From positions 5,818 to 27,862 of the forward strand of contig PKZK01000183.1 in the NCBI GenBank assembly GCA_003133025.1: a DNA stretch of 22,045 nt, given 5' to 3'. The notes beneath the pieces are model-generated. The model ran no database searches. It was not told the DNA's origin and saw nothing but the letters and a program-made list of their open reading frames with translations. The position numbers and the translations under genes are program-made. The number at the start of each line of letters is the position of its first letter. The stretch's first letter is position 1. This DNA comes from Vulcanimicrobiota bacterium. GTDB lineage: Bacteria; Vulcanimicrobiota; Vulcanimicrobiia; Vulcanimicrobiales; Vulcanimicrobiaceae. Shown here in pieces: positions 9,736 through 18,620 of this stretch.

Positions 9736-10446
9736 GTGGCGCTGCTCGAAGCCCGCAAGCTCTACGCCCGGTACGGCGAGAGCGACGTTCTCCACGGGAT
9801 CGACCTCGAGGTGGCGCAGGGTTCGATCGTAGCCCTGCTTGGCGCAAATGGATCCGGTAAGACGACGACGCTGCGCGCCTTGACCGGCGGCGTGCGCACG
9901 AGCGGCAACGTACTCTTCGACGATCGCGAGATCGCCGGGCTCCCGCCCGAAGCGGTCGCGCGCTTGGGCATCGCGCACGTACCCGAAGGCCGCGGCACGC
10001 TCGGATCGTTCACCGTTCGCGAGAATCTCAGCATGGGCGCCTACACGATCAAGGACGGGAAGCGCAGCAAAGCCCGGTACGAGAAACTCGTGGGCTATTT
10101 TCCCTGGCTCGTCGACCGGCGCGAGCAGCCCGCCGGCCTCTTGAGCGGCGGCGAACAGCAGATGCTCGCGATCGCGCGCGCACTCATGATGGAGCCGCGC
10201 GTCATCTTGCTCGACGAACCCTCGCTCGGGCTCGCGCCGATCATCGTCAAGCGCATCTTCGAAATTCTGCGCACGATCAACCGCGAAGACGGCGTCACGA
10301 TCGTGATCGCCGAACAGGACGCAGCCGCCGCCCTCGCTCTAGCCGATACCGCCTACGTCCTCGAAGTAGGCCGCGTTGCGATCAGCGGGCCGAGCGCCGA
10401 CTTAGCGGGCAACGAGCAACTGCGCAAATCATATCTCGGCTATTAG
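9736..10446 (+). CDS. livF: HAAT ABC transporter ATP-binding protein
   Basis: Walker A GANGSGKTT, HVPEGR, LSGGEQQMLAIARAL, LDEPSLGLAP and SYLG. Confidence 0.94.
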   Translation: MALLEARKLYARYGESDVLHGIDLEVAQGSIVALLGANGSGKTTTLRALTGGVRTSGNVLFDDREIAGLPPEAVARLGIAHVPEGRGTLGSFTVRENLSMGAYTIKDGKRSKARYEKLVGYFPWLVDRREQPAGLLSGGEQQMLAIARALMMEPRVILLDEPSLGLAPIIVKRIFEILRTINREDGVTIVIAEQDAAAALALADTAYVLEVGRVAISGPSADLAGNEQLRKSYLGY

Positions 10447-10475
10447 CGGAAACTTGAGCGCCGTTTGAAGACATC

Positions 10476-11111
10476 CTATTTATCTTGGGGAAACAACAAC
10501 ACCGTGCGAAAGGTCAATGATATCCTTCTCTCGCGATCGAAGGCGAATGATCCGATACGGTCCCGCTTGCGTGACGCAATACCATGCTTCCAAGAGAAGC
10601 GCGCATCGCCGCTAAGCACTAGCATACTGCGAGCCTTGAGCAACGCAGAACCCTTCTTACCGGCCTCTGATTCGAAGTTCATCACGATGTCCGAACAAAG
10701 CGACAACGAGGCGACAACGGGCCCGAAACAGGTATCTCTATCGATGTGCAGGCTGATGCCTTGTCCTGGCTGATACTCGTTCACAATAACCTGATCGGGA
10801 GGATGAGCTAGGTACTTCTCATCGACCAGCCTATCGGAGCATTCTCTTGCCCACGGCGGGAGATCCCCGATTCTATCGTTGTCGGAAATACCCCGCGACT
10901 TGTAGTCGTAACGATAGCCAAAATGTTGCACGCGGCGACGAAGCTCGGAACTCCAACCGGACGTCCCGGATCCGTCAATAGCTGCAACGATCTCGCGCTC
11001 TTCCGACTTCGAAACAAAATTGGGAAGGAAAAGCAAGCCGTCCGGTAAGCAGCCCTCGTACACCAGGACATCGCTCGGTGAAGCCTCTGCGAAGAGCAGA
11101 CCCTGAGCCAT
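10476..11111 (-). CDS. alkB: AlkB-family 2OG-Fe(II) dioxygenase (ALKBH8-like)
   Basis: RRVQHFGYRYDY, VNEY, HxD (LHID), distal His (WKHGI) and RISLTFR. Start moved to ATG 11111, which follows a strong GGAGGAGGTG RBS; the ORF-track TTG at 11162 is part of the -35 hexamer. Confidence 0.92.
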   Translation of the reverse strand: MAQGLLFAEASPSDVLVYEGCLPDGLLFLPNFVSKSEEREIVAAIDGSGTSGWSSELRRRVQHFGYRYDYKSRGISDNDRIGDLPPWARECSDRLVDEKYLAHPPDQVIVNEYQPGQGISLHIDRDTCFGPVVASLSLCSDIVMNFESEAGKKGSALLKARSMLVLSGDARFSWKHGIASRKRDRIGSFAFDRERRISLTFRTVLLFPQDK

Positions 11112-11132
11112 GACTTCACCTCCTCCTGCGCT

Positions 11133-11162
11133 AGTATAGAACATACGTTCGGACTCCGTCAA
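11133..11162 (-). promoter_or_regulatory. Sigma70-type promoter with LexA (SOS) box in the spacer
   Basis: Minus strand TTGACG (11162-11157)-N18-TATACT (11138-11133); the spacer holds CGAAC-GTAT-GTTCT (core 11139-11150), matching the GAAC-N4-GTTC LexA consensus of Bacillota/Actinomycetota/Chloroflexota. Confidence 0.85.
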
Positions 11163-11163
11163 C

Positions 11164-12120
11164 TCATGGGGTGATCAACTGGAAGAAGGCGCAGACGTTC
11201 TTCGTAGCAGGCGGCTCGCCGAACTCGAAGGTTCCATCCGGAGCGATTTCCACGTGCGGGGTGGAGTAGGTCGCCTTTCTGGGCCTGATGATGTAGCCGA
11301 GCGATTCGCATAGGTCGGCAAGAAGTCGGACTCGTTGCTCCGGCCAAACTAGGGTGTGCTTGCCCTCCTTCTTGGCATAATTCGCATCCTGAAGCAAAAG
11401 CCAGGCAGGAAGACCGGCCGAGCGCTCGCGTGCGTATCGCATGAGATTCGCAAGCGGCGACATATCCTGCATGAACTCCTGATGGACGACGTAGCTTGCA
11501 GCGAACACCACGCCGTCGCAGCCCTCCTGCAACCGCATGAACTCTTGCTGCTCGAGCGTGTCCAAAGATTCGACGAGCAAAGCCCGGCAACGTCCCGCGA
11601 GGGGCTCAATACCGAGCAGTTCTTCGCCCAACCTCCGCAGTGGCTCAGACGTATCGATACCCAGATAAGTAAGAAGCGTCACACCTGGGCCTCGTCGCTC
11701 CTCAAGCCAGTCCAAAATAGCTAGCGATGTAGTCGCTGGTCCACAACCGATGTCTATGATGAAAGGCCTCACCGGAAACGGGATCGGGTCGTCCGCGTAC
11801 GCATCTTCCAAAGCAGTGCGAAAAGACCAATAATGCATCGGCATCAGGCATATGCAATAGCAAACCGCCGCCTTGTCAGAATTGTATGGCCCCAGTCCAT
11901 GATTGCAGAAGCCGAGGCAACCACCTCGCCAGCCGATCCTTTGGGCAGCAGGCAATATGACGTCGAGAACGCCAGCTTCGAGAAAGCTCACGCGTGAGTC
12001 GAGCGAGCAATGATTCCTTGATTCACGAGTATACGCTTTCCAACAAGGGTGGGCTGGGTTCCTTGCAATGCAATCGCTTCTGAGCAGGTCGCGCGAACAT
12101 CTGAAGCGCGCCCGCAGCAA
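11164..12120 (-). CDS. Hypothetical protein with class I SAM-dependent methyltransferase-like fold
   Basis: Motif I FIIDIGCGPAT, motif II YLGIDTS, post-strand-4 VFAASYVVH. Start uncertain (TTG 12120, or GTG 11991 downstream of a TATACT at 12033-12028). Confidence 0.62.
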   Translation of the reverse strand: MLRARFRCSRDLLRSDCIARNPAHPCWKAYTRESRNHCSLDSRVSFLEAGVLDVILPAAQRIGWRGGCLGFCNHGLGPYNSDKAAVCYCICLMPMHYWSFRTALEDAYADDPIPFPVRPFIIDIGCGPATTSLAILDWLEERRGPGVTLLTYLGIDTSEPLRRLGEELLGIEPLAGRCRALLVESLDTLEQQEFMRLQEGCDGVVFAASYVVHQEFMQDMSPLANLMRYARERSAGLPAWLLLQDANYAKKEGKHTLVWPEQRVRLLADLCESLGYIIRPRKATYSTPHVEIAPDGTFEFGEPPATKNVCAFFQLITP

Positions 12121-12183
12121 GTCAGCAACCCGTTTGGTGTACGCGACCGATCGCCGGTTAAGGTCACGTTACTCCAGCGGCCT

Positions 12184-12429
12184 CTAGGTGTTCGTCTTCT
12201 TATGATTCGGCGGTACCTTGCCGCCTTCGCGGCGCGCCTCGCTCAGTCCGATCGCAATCGCCTGTTTCGGGTTGGTCACCTTTTTGCCCGAACCACCTGA
12301 CCGCAGTTCACCGCTCTTCATCTCGCGCATCGACTGCTCGACCTTCTCGCCAGCCAGCGGCCCGTATTTCCGCTTCCCGGTACTCGCCTTTCGAACCGTC
12401 GTCTTTGCAGTCGTCTTCTTTGCCGCCAT
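12184..12429 (-). CDS. DUF6496 small basic protein
   Basis: KVEQSMREMKSGELRSGGSGKKVTNPKQAIAIGLSEARREG family motif; GAGGAGGT RBS at 12442-12435. Confidence 0.88.
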   Translation of the reverse strand: MAAKKTTAKTTVRKASTGKRKYGPLAGEKVEQSMREMKSGELRSGGSGKKVTNPKQAIAIGLSEARREGGKVPPNHKKTNT

Positions 12430-12461
12430 CGCATACCTCCTCGAGAATGTGTCGCCTAAAA

Positions 12462-12486
12462 GTACCCGGCGCTCGAGCGCCTAAAC
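12462..12486 (-). promoter_or_regulatory. SigB/SigF-type general-stress promoter for DUF6496
   Basis: Minus strand GTTT (12486-12483)-N15-GGGTAC (12467-12462), matching the GTTT-N15-17-GGGTA consensus. Confidence 0.6.
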
Positions 12487-13287
12487 CCGCGGCGTCACGC
12501 CTGACGCCGCGGGAAGCTCGAGGTCGTAATCGATCGTCACCGGAGCGTGATCGGAGAAGCGCTCGTCGACGTAGATCGACGCCGCGCGCGCCGCACTCGC
12601 GAGATCGGGCGTGACGAGCTGATAATCGATGCGCCAGCCCAGATTGCGTTCGAACGCTCCGGGCCAGTTCGACCACCAGGTGTAGCGCTTGCGTTCGCCG
12701 TCGACGACGCGAAACGCATCGACCCAGCCCGCTCGATCGATGACCGCGTCCATCCACGCCCGCTCGTGGGGAAGGTGGCCCGTGACCTTCGCATTGCGCA
12801 CCGGGTCGTAGGTATCGATGGCCTTGTGTGCGATGTTATAGTCGCCGCAGAGGATGTAGCTGCGGCCGTCGTTGCGTTTGCGCGCTAAGATCGCGATGAA
12901 CTGCTCGAGGAAGCTGTCTTTGACGCCCTGACGCAGCTCGCCCGACGTGCCCGAAGGCACGTAGAGCGAGGCGATGCTGAACGAGCCCCAGTCGAACTGC
13001 ACGTAGCGGCCCTCGGCGTCGATGTCGGGCAAGCCGAAGCCGCGCACGATCGCATCGGGCGGCATCTTGGCGTACATCGCCACGCCGCTGTAGCCTTTCT
13101 TCTGCGCGTCGACGAAAGCATAACTGTACTCTTCGAGGTCGAGCGCCTCGGGCGGAAGCTGGTGCTCCTGCGCCTTGGTCTCTTGGATGCAGAGCACGTC
13201 GGGCGCGGTGCGCCGTAGCCAGGCGAAGAAGCCCTTGCGCGCTGCGGCGCGGATGCCGTTGGCGTTGAAGGTGGTGACGCGGAGCAT
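12481..13287 (-). CDS. xth: Exodeoxyribonuclease III / AP endonuclease
   Basis: TFNANGIRAA, LCIQETK, GYSGVA, SLYVPSG, CGDYNIAH, YTWWS, GWRIDY and SDHAP motifs. Start is ATG 13287 or 13308. Confidence 0.96.
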   Translation of the reverse strand: MLRVTTFNANGIRAAARKGFFAWLRRTAPDVLCIQETKAQEHQLPPEALDLEEYSYAFVDAQKKGYSGVAMYAKMPPDAIVRGFGLPDIDAEGRYVQFDWGSFSIASLYVPSGTSGELRQGVKDSFLEQFIAILARKRNDGRSYILCGDYNIAHKAIDTYDPVRNAKVTGHLPHERAWMDAVIDRAGWVDAFRVVDGERKRYTWWSNWPGAFERNLGWRIDYQLVTPDLASAARAASIYVDERFSDHAPVTIDYDLELPAASGVTPRV

Positions 13288-13416
13288 GAGCGTCGCTTCG
13301 ACGCCCATGCCCGGTTTAACTCATCACGAGACTGAAGCGCTCGAAGTCGGCCGAACCGCGGTTGCACGCGCGAGCCCAACTCGGCGACGTGTGCGCCGGT
13401 GCCGGCGCGGACGACT

Positions 13417-13923
13417 TCAGTCGGGGTACCGTCCGTTTTCGTCGGCGAGGACGATCTGCAGACCGCTTCCGCGCCGAATGCCTTGCATCGCGTTCCACGA
13501 TTGCGCGAGCGGACATTTTTCGAAAAACTCCTCGTCGTAGACGCGATTCAAGCGAACGCGGCCCGGGCCGAGCGGTTCGAAATGCTCGGGCACCGGTCCG
13601 CGCCGTTTCACGATCGCCGCGGCGACCGCTTCGAGCAGCGCCGTGCGCGCCGCCTTATCCGCGTCCCAAATGAGTAAGAGGTCGGGCAGATTCTTCGCGC
13701 CCATGCCGACCGTGTAACAGAATGCGGGCGAGCCGGCTTCGCCCTCGACGTCGATCCGATTCCAACCCAGTTTTCGCGCGCTCGCGCGCCGGTCGGTGAC
13801 GAGGCGGGCGTCGCCGAGCTGTATGCCCGGCGACGCCGTTACCGTCCGGCGCATGATGTAGGTTGCGGCCAGGATCAGGAGTGCGGCGCCAACCGCCAGA
13901 GTAACCCAGGTCCACTCGGTCAG
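13417..13923 (-). CDS. DUF4262 family protein with probable N-terminal transmembrane anchor
   Basis: PAFCYTVGM...LPDLLL and LQIVLADENGRYP motifs. The frame upstream of ATG 13854 reads (L)TEWTWVTLAVGAALLILAATYI back to CTG 13923. ATG 13854 is the conservative start. Confidence 0.72.
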   Translation of the reverse strand: MTEWTWVTLAVGAALLILAATYIMRRTVTASPGIQLGDARLVTDRRASARKLGWNRIDVEGEAGSPAFCYTVGMGAKNLPDLLLIWDADKAARTALLEAVAAAIVKRRGPVPEHFEPLGPGRVRLNRVYDEEFFEKCPLAQSWNAMQGIRRGSGLQIVLADENGRYPD

Positions 13924-16175
13924 GGTTTGAAGGCCGTTGGGAGCGGCCGCGGCCTGAAATCGGTCGGCGGCTGCCAGGTGTTGTGCATACGCATCGCCGG
14001 ACGACCCTTCGCCCGAGTCTTGGCGAAGTCATCGGCAGGCGCGACGGCCAAACCGGGTCCGCCGTCCGACACGAGCGCGAGTTGCTCGACGATCGAGCCG
14101 CTCGAGGGATCGAGCGCGTAGGCGATCGTGCCGCCGCCGCTCGCGACCTGAGCCCAGAGCAATTGCTCGCCCGAGTCGAACTTCAGGTACTGCAGCGTGC
14201 CGGAGTTCTGCAGCGTCGTGATCTTCTTGTACGGCTGCGTTCCGCCGGGCGCCCAGAACTCGATGTTCCCGGTCGTCGTGTTGGCGAACACCACATCGGC
14301 ATTCGCGTCGATGGTCAGCGAACTGCGGTATCCGCCGGCCGGCCCGAGAAGTGCGCCCGAGCCCGTTCCGCCCGGACCGAACTCCTTGACGCGCGCTTCG
14401 TTGTATTGGCTGCTCTCGTAGGCTACGTACACGTTGCCCGACGGATCGCAGTGCACCGCGAAGTTCCCGGTCGAATCCGAGTTCGAGATGAAGCTCGTCG
14501 GCGAATCGGCACCGTTTGCATACACGGCCACGGTTTGCGAATCGAGTGGAGCGATGTAGACCGTTCCATCCACGCACTTGGTGATGTCCCACGGGTGCGT
14601 GCCCGGGGTGCCGAACGTCGTGGTCGGACTGCTCTGACCGGTCAAAAACTCGACGCCGTCTTCCGCGTCGCTGTTGGCCACGTAGAGATCGCCGCTCGTG
14701 TCGATATCCATGCCCGTCGGGCCGCCGATGCCGTTCGTGATCGTGCCCAGTTGGCCGCCGGTCTTGGCGTCGTAGATCAGCACCTGCGAGTTGTCGGGAA
14801 TGAAGATCGTATCGGAGTTGCCGCTGGCGCACGAACCGCTGACGGAGATGTTGACCAACACGTCGTTGCCGATCTGGTCTTGCACGAGGATGCCCGTCGA
14901 GCCGGCGCCTTCTCCGGTGACGGTGAAGACCGTTCCGGGAGGACCGCTGGAAGGCGAAACCGTTGCGATATTGCTGTTCTGAGACGTGGCGTCGAAGTTT
15001 GCCGTGGAGCCGGGCTCGGCAGGAGTAAACGTACCCGAACAGTTCGACGGCCCTTTGAGCGATAAGCTCGCCGGCGCGGTGGTCAGGATGAACTTGAGAT
15101 AGGCTCCGACATCGCCGGTGGCATCGGTGAGCCACATGTTGCCGTCGAAGCCGTTGTAGATGTAGCGCAGGTTCGGTTTGGGCGCGGTCGCCTCGGGCTC
15201 GTACGTGTCGCTCGAGGGAATGAACGTCCCGATCGCCGCGCTGTTGTTGGCGGTGTCGATGTACAGCACGGAGCCGTCGGCTTTCCGCGCGAGAAAGCCC
15301 GGGTGCTGGCCGTTCGGCGCGGGATACGTCGTCGAGGTGCCGTTACTCGTGATGACCGAAAGTTGCGCGGCGACCGAATCCGAATAGACCATCACGCCCG
15401 AGGAGTTGGTGATGTAGAGCGGGTGGCCACCGACGTTGAACGTGGTCGCCGCTCCCGTAGCGGGCGCGACCCGATCGATGTTCCCGCTCTCGTCGGCAAT
15501 GTAGAGGTTGCCGTCGGCGCCGGCTGCGATGGAGGTGAGCACGGGCACGCCGGCGCCTTTGAGTTCGTAGAGTTTCGAGGAGCCCGTGGGCGTGACGTAC
15601 CCGTAGCCCGCGAGCGTCGTCTTCCCGCTCGTGTAGCTGCCGCAGAACCACAGGTTCCCGTCGGGTCCGGCGACGAGGCTCGACACGTCGATGGCGTTGG
15701 GCAGGGGATACGACGTGGACGAACCGCTCTCGGTAAACTGGTAGATCAGCCGCGAGCCCGTCTTATTCTTGTGCTGGTCGGCCACCCAGACGTAGTTGTC
15801 GTTCTCGGCAATAGGGCCGGGCACCGACGACGCGCCGAGCGGATAGGTCGTGATCTGGCCAGTCGAGATCGTGACCTTCCCCACGAAGCCGGGCGCATTC
15901 TTCTTGCAGCCCGCGGGCACGGAGAACCACATCGACAGCTGGGACGCACCGTGGCTCAATTGCCCGAGGGGCACGTCGCACGGGCCCGGATACTCCACGA
16001 ACTGGGCACCGTTGTTGAGTTGGAAGGCCTTGGGACTCAAGGCGCGAGAGGCGTCGCCTCCCGACGATCCGGCGAGGCCGGACGAAGGGGCCGAAAGCGC
16101 GTGAGCGCCGCCGCATCCTGCGAGCGCCAGGGCGGAAGTAAAGAACAGAGCGGAGAGTCGAGAGCGAAAAATCAT
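13920..16175 (-). CDS. Large lipoprotein: Vgb-like beta-propeller + Ig-like domain + NHL-like beta-propeller
   Basis: Lipobox LAGC (Cys21); repeats GPDGNLWF, GADGNLYI, GFDGNMWL; central ATVSP...FTVTG beta-sandwich-like segment; DTSGDLYVAN and DPSGNVYVA repeats. Confidence 0.8.
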   Translation of the reverse strand: MIFRSRLSALFFTSALALAGCGGAHALSAPSSGLAGSSGGDASRALSPKAFQLNNGAQFVEYPGPCDVPLGQLSHGASQLSMWFSVPAGCKKNAPGFVGKVTISTGQITTYPLGASSVPGPIAENDNYVWVADQHKNKTGSRLIYQFTESGSSTSYPLPNAIDVSSLVAGPDGNLWFCGSYTSGKTTLAGYGYVTPTGSSKLYELKGAGVPVLTSIAAGADGNLYIADESGNIDRVAPATGAATTFNVGGHPLYITNSSGVMVYSDSVAAQLSVITSNGTSTTYPAPNGQHPGFLARKADGSVLYIDTANNSAAIGTFIPSSDTYEPEATAPKPNLRYIYNGFDGNMWLTDATGDVGAYLKFILTTAPASLSLKGPSNCSGTFTPAEPGSTANFDATSQNSNIATVSPSSGPPGTVFTVTGEGAGSTGILVQDQIGNDVLVNISVSGSCASGNSDTIFIPDNSQVLIYDAKTGGQLGTITNGIGGPTGMDIDTSGDLYVANSDAEDGVEFLTGQSSPTTTFGTPGTHPWDITKCVDGTVYIAPLDSQTVAVYANGADSPTSFISNSDSTGNFAVHCDPSGNVYVAYESSQYNEARVKEFGPGGTGSGALLGPAGGYRSSLTIDANADVVFANTTTGNIEFWAPGGTQPYKKITTLQNSGTLQYLKFDSGEQLLWAQVASGGGTIAYALDPSSGSIVEQLALVSDGGPGLAVAPADDFAKTRAKGRPAMRMHNTWQPPTDFRPRPLPTAFKP

Positions 16176-17498: not shown

Positions 17499-18620
17499 CT
17501 AGAACGCACCAAGCCCGTCGGGCGTTCCGTTTCCGGTGGGCTCGTCGTAGCCGCTGGGCGGAATGTCGTAGAGTTTCGAGGCGTGCGCATAGAGCGTGCG
17601 CGCGTTCTTGATGGTTCTCGCGTTGCCGGCGAGCGCGTAGAGTGCGGCGAGCGCCGGCGCACCGACGCTCGTGCCGCCGACCACGAGCCAGCCGTTCTCC
17701 TGATACGAGTCGTAGATCGCGACGCCGGTCGAAGGGTCACCCACGAAGGCCGCGTCCACGTCGGTGCGCGTCGTGCAGAACGTGTCGTGCTGCCACGCGG
17801 GCTTCTTGGCGTATTGCGCGCAGCCGCCGCCGCCATCGGCAGTCTCGGTCCAGCCACGGCTGCCGCCGCCGCCTTTTTTCAAGGTCGTGGACCCAACCGC
17901 GGTCACGTAGGGTAGGGCCGCCGGGTAACCGATGCCGTAGCCCGAGTCGCCCGCGGCTGCGGTGACCGGGCGGCCCGCATCGTAGGGCGAGTGGGCGTCC
18001 TCGCCCTCGAACTCCGCGCCGGTGTAGCCGGTGGAGATCACCGTCGCGCCCAACGTCCGCGCTTCGCTCACCGCGGCGCCGAGATCGGAGAGCGACGCAC
18101 TGCTCGCCTCCACTAAGAGAATCTTGCAGTTGGGACAGAGCGCCGAGACCATGTCGGCATCGAGCGACTCTTCGACGGCCCAGCCCGCGTTCGGCGAGGG
18201 CAAAGACGAGCCGCCCATCTGATTGACCTTAGCCAAACATCCCGAGCCGCACGCGGCTAAGCCATAGGTGCTGCGATACTCCGCGACATCGGCGAGCAGA
18301 TTGGGGTCGTCGTACGCATCGATGATCGCGGCCGTCGCGCCCGCGCCGCCGCCGATGTCGTCGGTCAGACTGTACGCGCTCCACAAATCCTGGGGTCCGT
18401 AGCCCTTGGGCAGCCCTGCGAGCGCGACGTCGCCATCCTCGCGTATGCGCGCCGCGCAGTGCGCGAAGCCGAAGCGTGCATTTTCGCACGCGGCTCGAAC
18501 CGGAGTCGCGAGACTAAGCGCGAGTACGCTGCGCGCAGGCGCGTCCGTCGCCACGCCCGCACACCCGGCCACGGCGACGAATCCAATCAGTGCAAAGCCT
18601 CTGCGAATCATCACGCGCAT
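17499..18620 (-). CDS. S53 (sedolisin-like) serine peptidase, lipoprotein
   Basis: EESLD (Glu-x3-Asp), GDSG oxyanion Asp, GGTS nucleophile, GYDEPTGNGTP calcium-site region; lipobox VAGC (Cys20). Confidence 0.87.
   Translation of the reverse strand: MRVMIRRGFALIGFVAVAGCAGVATDAPARSVLALSLATPVRAACENARFGFAHCAARIREDGDVALAGLPKGYGPQDLWSAYSLTDDIGGGAGATAAIIDAYDDPNLLADVAEYRSTYGLAACGSGCLAKVNQMGGSSLPSPNAGWAVEESLDADMVSALCPNCKILLVEASSASLSDLGAAVSEARTLGATVISTGYTGAEFEGEDAHSPYDAGRPVTAAAGDSGYGIGYPAALPYVTAVGSTTLKKGGGGSRGWTETADGGGGCAQYAKKPAWQHDTFCTTRTDVDAAFVGDPSTGVAIYDSYQENGWLVVGGTSVGAPALAALYALAGNARTIKNARTLYAHASKLYDIPPSGYDEPTGNGTPDGLGAF

Follow-up and report, generated by a model that had tools for sequence, protein, structure and literature searches.

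The window, a 22,045-nucleotide stretch of contig PKZK01000183.1 from a Vulcanimicrobiota bacterium, carries a two-gene cassette encoding a class I methyltransferase dependent on S-adenosylmethionine (SAM) and a dioxygenase of the AlkB family. Both genes are intact and foreign, and the cassette was acquired horizontally. The two genes are tightly and repeatedly linked, sometimes fused, have co-varying trees and often stand among defence genes. A dedicated methyltransferase-AlkB system, likely directed at nucleic acids, is well supported. We tentatively propose, at a probability of about 0.45, a mobile module in which the Rsm22-like methyltransferase would methylate an RNA base and the ALKBH8-like AlkB would remove the methyl group, with a role in defence or conflict. 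Its reading as a toxin with an antidote is only plausible.

A foreign methyltransferase-alkB cassette

The features of the cassette and its borders are as follows.

10447..12180, no strand: low-GC insertion, between livF (plus strand) and the DUF6496-xth pair (minus strand)
11164..11991, minus strand: class I SAM-dependent methyltransferase gene, 275 amino acids (aa), most likely start GTG 11991
10476..11111, minus strand: alkB, Fe(II)/2-oxoglutarate dioxygenase, group 2A (ALKBH8-like) by sequence, 211 aa (P0002), most likely start ATG 11111, PF13532 E 2e-25
11118..11127, minus strand: strong Shine-Dalgarno-like stretch AGGAGGAGGT 5' of alkB, duplex energy -13.4 kcal/mol
11133..11162, minus strand: sigma-70-like site TTGACG-18-TATACT (10/12) in the intergenic gap, a possible separate alkB promoter
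9736-10446, plus strand: livF-like ABC ATPase gene, Pfam ABC_tran
12184-13308, minus strand: DUF6496 gene, behind the exonuclease III gene (xth), in the same order as in relative G023

An earlier note on this DNA had described two co-oriented, lower-GC genes placed tail to tail with livF and had taken them for a foreign cassette, and both statements held. The GC content of 10447-12180 was 0.558, compared with 0.652 and 0.648 in the flanks and 0.665 in the genome, and equally low values occurred in just 0.3% of 5909 genome windows of the same size. GC at third codon positions was 0.60-0.66 in the cassette genes, whereas four flanking genes gave 0.83-0.86 and the DUF6496 gene 0.74. The cassette was hit by none of the best 150 of 218 DNA matches in 40 related genomes (including the unpublished G018, G020 and G036), and the nearest genome loci for both genes were in Eremiobacterota-type bins. 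The stretch was present in 14 DNA runs from peat, permafrost and moss, each with at least 0.9 of its words, so it is not an assembly artefact. No terminal repeats longer than 7 bp were found at the cassette and no integrase or transposase gene within it. Because the DUF6496-xth order recurs in G023, the insertion probably ends on its right side at the DUF6496 gene, which is likely native.

The open reading frames (ORFs), both on the minus strand, extend at their fullest over 11164-12120 and 10476-11162, with 29 bp between alkB and the livF-like gene. The genes were intact as the note had it, but the starts at 12120 and 11162 are likely replaced by 11991 and 11111. GTG 11991 is the most likely start of the methyltransferase, since the Atlas contains an identical sequence with this start and full-length homologues align from about there, and the 43 extra codons up to TTG 12120 are probably not translated. 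ATG 11111 is most likely the AlkB start because the strong Shine-Dalgarno-like stretch precedes it; the methyltransferase start has no comparable one (duplex energy -3.2 kcal/mol). One sigma-70-like site was found against 0.8 expected, which is not above chance as a count. Contigs from RNA runs covered parts of alkB in 5/5 runs and of the methyltransferase gene in 2/5, although such contigs cannot rank expression. RNA contigs from two studies end at 11114, between ribosome site and ATG; these ends lie 3' of the ribosome site and therefore do not confirm the promoter.

No credible empty-site allele was seen in three DNA runs; the listing for the DNA runs contains one joint from 10339 to 12498, for which side lengths are absent. 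In run X14 the cassette contig departs from the window at 10455 and a second contig has a loose end at 10070, which suggests a strain rearranged at the livF junction. Elsewhere in the window, 13920-16175 encodes a 751-aa predicted secreted propeller protein (Vgb/NHL matches below cut-off), and 17499-18620 a 373-aa protein that is subtilase-like by eye, with no Pfam match at E 0.1.

The upstream protein contains the SAM-binding motifs that had been read from it, motif I DIGCGP (residues 80-85) and motif II YLGID (109-113). The segment YCICLMPMHY is also present; it had been described as rich in Cys and Tyr, but it is a family signature, YC..H (Y45, C46, H53), and not a Cys cluster. D80, G82, G84 and P85 of motif I were invariant in 31/31 aligned members and D113 was kept in 30/31, while Y45, C46 and H53 were kept in 30/31, 27/31 and 28/31. 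The protein was called an orphan, which proved wrong, as 47 homologues including itself were found. Nor is it a pseudogene fragment: it aligned at full length with its nearest homologues (42-48% identity), without stops and with the SAM motifs intact. Word-index protein searches returned itself and one homologue, no relative was seen in viral contigs, and a search of solved sequences with the family profile gave motif-level matches and nothing more.

In the fold check recommended in the note, Foldseek was uninformative, its top rows being small-molecule methyltransferases with TM <0.5 and root-mean-square deviation (rmsd) 4.8-12.7. A full structural search of 48,161 chains with the predicted model (pLDDT 92) placed proteins of trypanosome, human and yeast mitoribosome small-subunit assembly in the first three positions (Z 18.1, 17.3 and 14.1); the human and yeast chains we take to be METTL17 and Rsm22. 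Rsm22-type matches had an rmsd of 3.7-3.9 over 235-239 residues at 10-12% identity. The next row, the best small-molecule enzyme, stood at Z 13.1, and the top 50 rows contained no DNA methyltransferase. Rsm22 clusters at TM ~0.7 were found independently in the Atlas. The window protein had no real match in Pfam or NCBIfam: PF09243 was absent at E 0.1, with weak matches in 7/31 members (best E 2e-4), and a bDLD3 match (E 0.07) was dismissed as noise. No conserved Cys follows the core (columns with at least 10 Cys among the 31 members are C46, C83 and one near motif IV), and the chain ends with the Rossmann fold, leaving no room for a C-terminal OB-fold. Excerpts of PMC8171064 place Rsm22 in the trypanosome entry, describe a zinc-finger-like motif after its Rossmann fold and a C-terminal OB-fold, and report methylation of tRNA by yeast Rsm22 in vitro. 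Because the zinc-finger-like and OB parts are absent, the window protein, which its model identifies as a class I methyltransferase of predicted Rsm22/METTL17-like fold, is not filed as a formal member of Rsm22.

The note's statement that the downstream gene is a complete alkB was confirmed. The iron triad H122-x-D124 and H176, the residues R196-x5-R202 and the lid motif RRVQHFGYRY are intact. Triad and RX5R residues were 96-100% conserved in 119 aligned rows, and RRVQHFGY aligned with ALKBH8. Human ALKBH8 (3thp) was the best solved-structure match (E 1.8e-32; next 4.7e-13), and the NCBIfam models of E. coli-type AlkB were far under cut-off (44 of 267 bits). With ligands intact, E. coli-type cut-offs missed and ALKBH8 the closest solved structure, the sequence identifies the protein as group 2A, ALKBH8-like. 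Like the window methyltransferase, it is a single domain without a Pfam match to an RNA recognition motif (RRM), zinc finger or Trm9-type methyltransferase. The AlkB had no PADLOC match at E 0.1 and no match in 50,697 phage records.

Linkage of the two genes and a second partner

A search with the window AlkB found 525 genome loci, of which the best 80 were analyzed (alkB-seeded set). The methyltransferase gene was located directly upstream on the same strand in 19/80, or 20/80 by an iterated profile that includes a remnant, and outside Pseudomonadota 19 of 28 loci were paired in this way. Paired loci came from Eremiobacterota-type bins, Armatimonadota, Bacteroidota, Cyanobacteria, Planctomycetota, Poribacteria and one gammaproteobacterium. 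With the methyltransferase as query, 62 metagenome loci were found. The alkB gene was adjacent in 17 of them (one from this organism, one convergent); four were cut 5', four lay at a contig edge, and one had room yet no alkB.

Genome samples chosen independently of alkB gave methyltransferase matches in 5/251, 4/121, 3/401, 5/401 and 1/401 genomes and in 24/61 Poribacteria, tallies that are minimum values, since only a few candidates in each genome were scored. They include five seed genomes and three motif-only matches, and dropping these left 34 genomes with a strong match: alkB was adjacent in 27, two genes on in one, cut off by the contig in two and missing in four. The Poribacteria loci (L173-L202, L206, L207, L213, L214, L217) include tandem methyltransferase-alkB-methyltransferase arrays, two fusions and a lone paralogue. 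In-frame fusions of methyltransferase and alkB as a single ORF occurred in two genomes (539 and 633 aa), and P0153 is a partial fusion.

Distances of the partners were correlated (Mantel rho 0.76, p 0.001, 51 pairs; same nearest neighbour in 28/51), with a contribution from shared host ancestry. A comparison of the best ribosome sites in 33 pairs favoured alkB in 23 and the methyltransferase in 7 (p 0.024). Kin are non-independent in both tests. The methyltransferase gene was broken beside a full-length alkB in L031, L040, L081, L088 and L177. The GC content of alkB was below that of its flanks in 19 of 20 paired loci (median 5.7 points); where a full partner was lacking, the proportion was 19 of 38. 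These linkage counts exclude a chance neighbourhood; the adjacency check proposed in the note thus returned neighbours in many phyla, in-frame fusions and co-varying trees.

Scanning 41 neighbours of alkB loci without the Rsm22-like gene revealed 16 BMT5-like genes above the Pfam cut-off (PF10354). By profile search, a BMT5-like gene or remnant was present in 24/80 alkB loci, all Pseudomonadota and several of them remnants. The BMT5-like gene lies directly upstream of alkB in L017, L019, L021, L026, L032, L034, L037-L039, L043, L045, L048, L052, L064, L072, L092 and others. The two kinds never occurred together (0/80), so that in 44/80 loci alkB directly follows a methyltransferase gene of one kind or the other; by profile comparison (probability 0.2%) the two families are unrelated. 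With either partner, lid and catalytic residues of AlkB were 94-100% conserved. Among 251 sampled Alphaproteobacteria, four had a BMT5-like gene, followed by alkB in three and broken in the fourth. The bacterial BMT5-like proteins carry an N-terminal helical extension. A fold search with a BMT5-like model was uninformative (flat Z 12-13.5). BMT5-like plus group 2A alkB is a second system in its own right.

According to excerpts of PMC3950682, yeast Bmt5 (PF10354) writes 3-methyluridine (m3U) in rRNA, and excerpts of PMC7694415 report that FTO demethylates m3U in vitro. Because one AlkB type has taken two unrelated RNA-type methyltransferases in the same slot, AlkB would act on the methyltransferase product. 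This partner swap, read from sequence, is the strongest sign of such action and points to an N3-type mark.

Genomic surroundings

Defence context of the pair is common, in agreement with the proximity check that the note had called for: neighbours include type III CRISPR, retron-type reverse transcriptase (RT), DarTG, Gabija, Lamassu and ADP-ribosyltransferase genes. In five Bacteroidota-type loci the pair closes an operon of a UvrD-like helicase, a fused ADP-ribosyltransferase/glycohydrolase (2CompART-2CompARG; ART-ARG), a methyltransferase of 480 aa whose N-terminal 225 aa form an unannotated domain, and alkB. These four-gene operons are as follows.

L074:431-5540
L140:2279-7396
L142:154-5306
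L151:1986-7160
L205:5419-10870

A helix-turn-helix gene precedes the operon in L140 and L151. The ART-ARG fusion would give these operons a further write/erase pair. Additional neighbours were Gabija downstream (L140), HD-CE (L205), an Eco57I-type restriction-modification gene (L089), and, in L023, EAD11 together with DarT-Macro two genes upstream. Behind a Lamassu/ABC-3C operon (L212:7794-11958) lie a methyltransferase gene, a helicase-like gene and a gene for a 744-aa protein in which an unannotated 600-aa N-terminus is fused to AlkB; this protein was considered as an ART-ARG relative and proved unrelated.

Synechococcus PCC 7002 has the WYL-methyltransferase-alkB block twice (L222:8926-10450, L223:8926-10450). 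On plasmid pAQ6 the pair follows Csx1 and WYL genes at a type III-B CRISPR locus, and on pAQ5 it follows a retron-type RT and a WYL gene; the genes of the two pairs are SYNPCC7002_RS14875/RS14870 and RS14625/RS14630. In two Saprospiraceae bins (L070:1309-4932, L049:2-2179) an alanyl-tRNA synthetase is fused in frame to the methyltransferase and followed by alkB; two further Saprospiraceae matches are unfused. Gut-type metagenome contigs (L100-L146, L154, L204:5735-10165) encode proteins of 1400-1650 aa ending in the methyltransferase domain. Many copies of the pair, including that of the window, stand alone among housekeeping genes, and no recurrent biosynthetic genes were found among the scanned neighbours.

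Among PADLOC models, C3a159 was matched by 30/31 methyltransferase members, RT_UG35 by 6/31 and RT_UG25 by 3/31; the window protein gave weak matches only, to C3a159 (E 7e-5, partial), mad2 and RT_UG35. C3a159 is a type III CRISPR accessory methyltransferase (excerpts of PMC6546367), and UG35 and UG25 are methylase-RT models (excerpts of PMC9226505). No single PADLOC system had its models matched by both window genes.

Several group 2A alkB copies had other surroundings. The Roseobacter alkB characterized earlier (L224:520-1570) is on the 5.8-kb plasmid pTB4 with a BrnT-BrnA pair, behind a 153-aa gene of unknown kind that is common to the small contigs L073 and L082. In two rhizobia (L036:3739-5585, L041:3694-5591) a phage portal gene is followed directly by group 2A alkB. 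The partnerless copies nearest to the clade of the window (L060, L067, L085, L015) have unannotated neighbours. Beside partnerless alkB, Nannocystis has an ORF of ~145 aa upstream and one of 710-730 aa downstream, and Spirillospora one of 838 aa upstream; at this high GC they may be spurious.

Proposed function, alternatives and known systems

In the proposed mechanism, the methyltransferase would methylate a base in RNA, and its AlkB partner would oxidatively strip that methyl group. The mark may be a methyl on the pairing face such as N3-methyl-pyrimidine. With AlkB in excess, the mark would stay scarce; infection or stress would upset this balance, and the accumulated mark might then block translation or reverse transcription. 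Three features suggest an RNA substrate: a fold like that of Rsm22/METTL17, an alternative partner of Bmt5 type and a lid like that of ALKBH8. An N3-type mark is suggested by a partner from the yeast m3U-writer family together with the removal of N3-methyl marks by AlkB-family enzymes. Erasure is favoured by the replacement partner from an m3U family, the parallel with ART-ARG and the defence neighbourhoods, and also because the methyltransferase decays repeatedly beside full-length alkB and translation is biased to alkB. The note had suggested a methylation toxin with a demethylase antidote. The conserved pair and the defence context agree with this, while lone paralogues and helicase fusions without alkB speak against its strict form.

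Several results weigh against the proposed RNA methylation and erasure, in addition to the kinship effects in the two tests above. Neither methyltransferase partner was present in 36/80 alkB loci. By its design the alkB-seeded set is tilted towards intact alkB and conserved lids. In 36/62 metagenome loci the methyltransferase domain forms the end of an ORF >1000 aa and alkB is absent from the vicinity; three of the 36 were scanned, and all were superfamily 1 (SF1) helicases with AAA_11/AAA_12 and, in one, NERD. Only in L204 does alkB stand behind a helicase-methyltransferase fusion. An intact-looking paralogue was present in four Poribacteria genomes, including one assembled into nearly a single contig, in which no group 2A alkB was found; these lone paralogues form one clade (SH-aLRT 99) in which YC..H is altered and the SAM motifs are intact. 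The broken gene is alkB in L095, L019 and L219, and the ribosome-site bias was missing in BMT5-type pairs (5 vs 5). The gene upstream of the Roseobacter pTB4 alkB matched neither methyltransferase family. A link of the methyltransferase to PF11312 (Methyltransf_34), which we take to be the m3U family Bmt6, was rejected: its hidden Markov model matched 0/31 members at E 0.05 and 0/5 genomes, and PF11312 appeared in Atlas feature neighbours alone (13-28% cluster share).

The biochemistry of group 2A enzymes, as given in excerpts of PMC2790896 and PMC4051686, also bears on this question. The enzymes repair etheno adducts; that of R. etli did so with little activity on methyl marks, and none of those tested rescued sensitivity to methyl methanesulfonate, which add to the points against methyl erasure. 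The Roseobacter enzyme repaired 3-methylcytosine (m3C) in vitro (PMC4051686). Loss of the Agrobacterium gene left the tRNA-Gly wobble modification unchanged. The excerpts of PMC4051686 favour RNA hydroxylation or modification as the role of group 2A, a further point against erasure, and state the natural substrate of bacterial ALKBH8-like proteins as an open question.

The alternative that survives best, though we consider it unlikely, is a two-step pathway as in ALKBH8, in which a tRNA or rRNA nucleoside would be methylated and then hydroxylated by AlkB. The resulting stable, hypermodified base could protect RNA against nucleases or adjust decoding. The closest solved relative is ALKBH8 and the lid motif is kept, channelling would suit the constant gene order and the in-frame fusions, the alanyl-tRNA synthetase fusions of two Saprospiraceae speak for it, and lone methyltransferases are tolerated. 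The weak demethylation by group 2A enzymes and the preference for RNA modification in the excerpts of PMC4051686 point the same way. However, the methyltransferase is Rsm22-like, its substitute comes from an N3-methylating family, and the pair is rare, foreign and defence-linked without lineage stability. By established AlkB chemistry, a methyl-hydroxylated N3-methyl base sheds the group as formaldehyde, and a hydroxylated N3-methyl product would lose its methyl in this way. The unchanged tRNA-Gly wobble modification in Agrobacterium (same excerpts) likewise disagrees with two steps.

A DNA target is improbable. The writer would place a mark that blocks replication on the single-stranded DNA of an invader or on cDNA made by an RT, while AlkB would repair collateral marks on the chromosome of the host. 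Fusion of the domain to, or its place beside, SF1 helicases and RTs would fit, as would the DarT-Macro neighbour and the in vitro action of group 2A enzymes on m3C and etheno lesions in DNA (excerpts of PMC4051686). Yet the nearest folds are the RNA-binding Rsm22/METTL17, with no DNA methyltransferase in the top 50 rows, and the alternative partner family acts on rRNA (excerpts of PMC3950682).

Slightly less probable still is that the methyltransferase cooperates with further defence components (helicase, RT, CRISPR), with alkB as a dispensable gene that clears stray methyl or etheno damage and is no dedicated antidote. Although helicase fusions without alkB, the 36/80 partnerless alkB loci and etheno repair as the best documented activity (excerpts of PMC2790896 and PMC4051686) agree with this, the two genes can move without any further part, as they did in the window, the pair is adjacent in 27/34 genomes and sometimes fused in frame, and another, unrelated methyltransferase has come to occupy the same slot. 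A pair tailoring small molecules or proteins, to which the top rows of Foldseek (TM <0.5, rmsd 4.8-12.7) might point, is very improbable given the Rsm22/METTL17 scores of Z 18.1 and 17.3, where the best small-molecule enzyme reached 13.1, the conserved nucleotide lid of AlkB and the lack of recurrent biosynthetic genes in scanned neighbours, and the same grade covers chance neighbours, which the linkage counts exclude.

Returning to RNA methylation and its erasure, a broader form, which we regard as doubtful, holds that ALKBH8-like enzymes might erase a widespread reversible RNA methylation (m3U or similar) laid down by two writer families, that this could be an anti-phage or toxin switch, and that it may be the source of the AlkB domain of ALKBH8. 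If this RNA-methyl switch is true, bacteria would have a dedicated methyl writer/eraser immune system, the likely setting in which ALKBH8's AlkB domain was recruited. Gene neighbourhoods point to two candidate writers, and bacterial ALKBH8-like enzymes should have the products of these writers as their substrate; one writer is from a family of known m3U chemistry, which makes the substrate question directly testable, and Synechococcus PCC 7002, with the pair on two plasmids, is an experimentally accessible host. A true writer/eraser would add methylation to the chemistries of toxin-antitoxin and anti-phage systems, and a true two-step pathway would be a new mobile RNA modification. Either outcome would inform the predicted methylase domains of UG25/UG35 RTs and type III CRISPR accessories, and a site-specific demethylase tool is possible.

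Compared with what is known, the parts are of known kinds and the system as a whole appears undescribed. As the note had it, the pair is not a named system: no PADLOC system covers both genes, and no description of either methyltransferase-AlkB pair was found in the literature, where a prior listing, for example in supplements, is possible. The main texts of PMC6546367 and PMC9226505 do not mention AlkB, nor did a term search find it in PMC9503650 and PMC8195603; the excerpts of PMC7824862 mention phage AlkB in general terms only.

The window AlkB is of the same subtype as the group 2A enzymes of PMC2790896 and PMC4051686, with ALKBH8 as best Protein Data Bank match, motifs intact and a single domain; in the excerpts of those papers the enzymes are stand-alone, whereas 44/80 loci here have an upstream methyltransferase. 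The methyltransferase domain is related to C3a159 and the UG25/UG35 methylase-RTs, which have defence settings (excerpts of PMC6546367 and PMC9226505), although the window protein matches C3a159 and UG35 only partially and weakly (E 7e-5). Rsm22/METTL17 (PF09243) are the closest solved folds over its whole chain; it differs from them in lacking the C-terminal Cys motif and OB-fold, in its own YC..H signature and in a context other than ribosome assembly. The family of yeast Bmt5 (excerpts of PMC3950682) replaces it upstream of the same AlkB in Alphaproteobacteria, shows no homology to it beyond the general fold, and has bacterial members whose activity is predicted from sequence.

Animal ALKBH8 (RRM-AlkB-ZnF-Trm9) likewise couples this AlkB subtype to a class I methyltransferase, and fusions occur here too. 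The analogy drawn in the note is thus right as to the AlkB domain only, since by fold search the methyltransferase is Rsm22-like and not Trm9-like; the window pair also lacks RRM and zinc finger, has the opposite domain order, and is mobile and patchy. DarTG is a modify/erase toxin-antitoxin pair. The present pair differs from it in methyl instead of ADP-ribose chemistry and in that some writers occur without an eraser. It resembles DarTG, as read from the genes, in being a small mobile two-gene unit with a predicted writer upstream of a predicted eraser, defence neighbours and the better ribosome site at the eraser.

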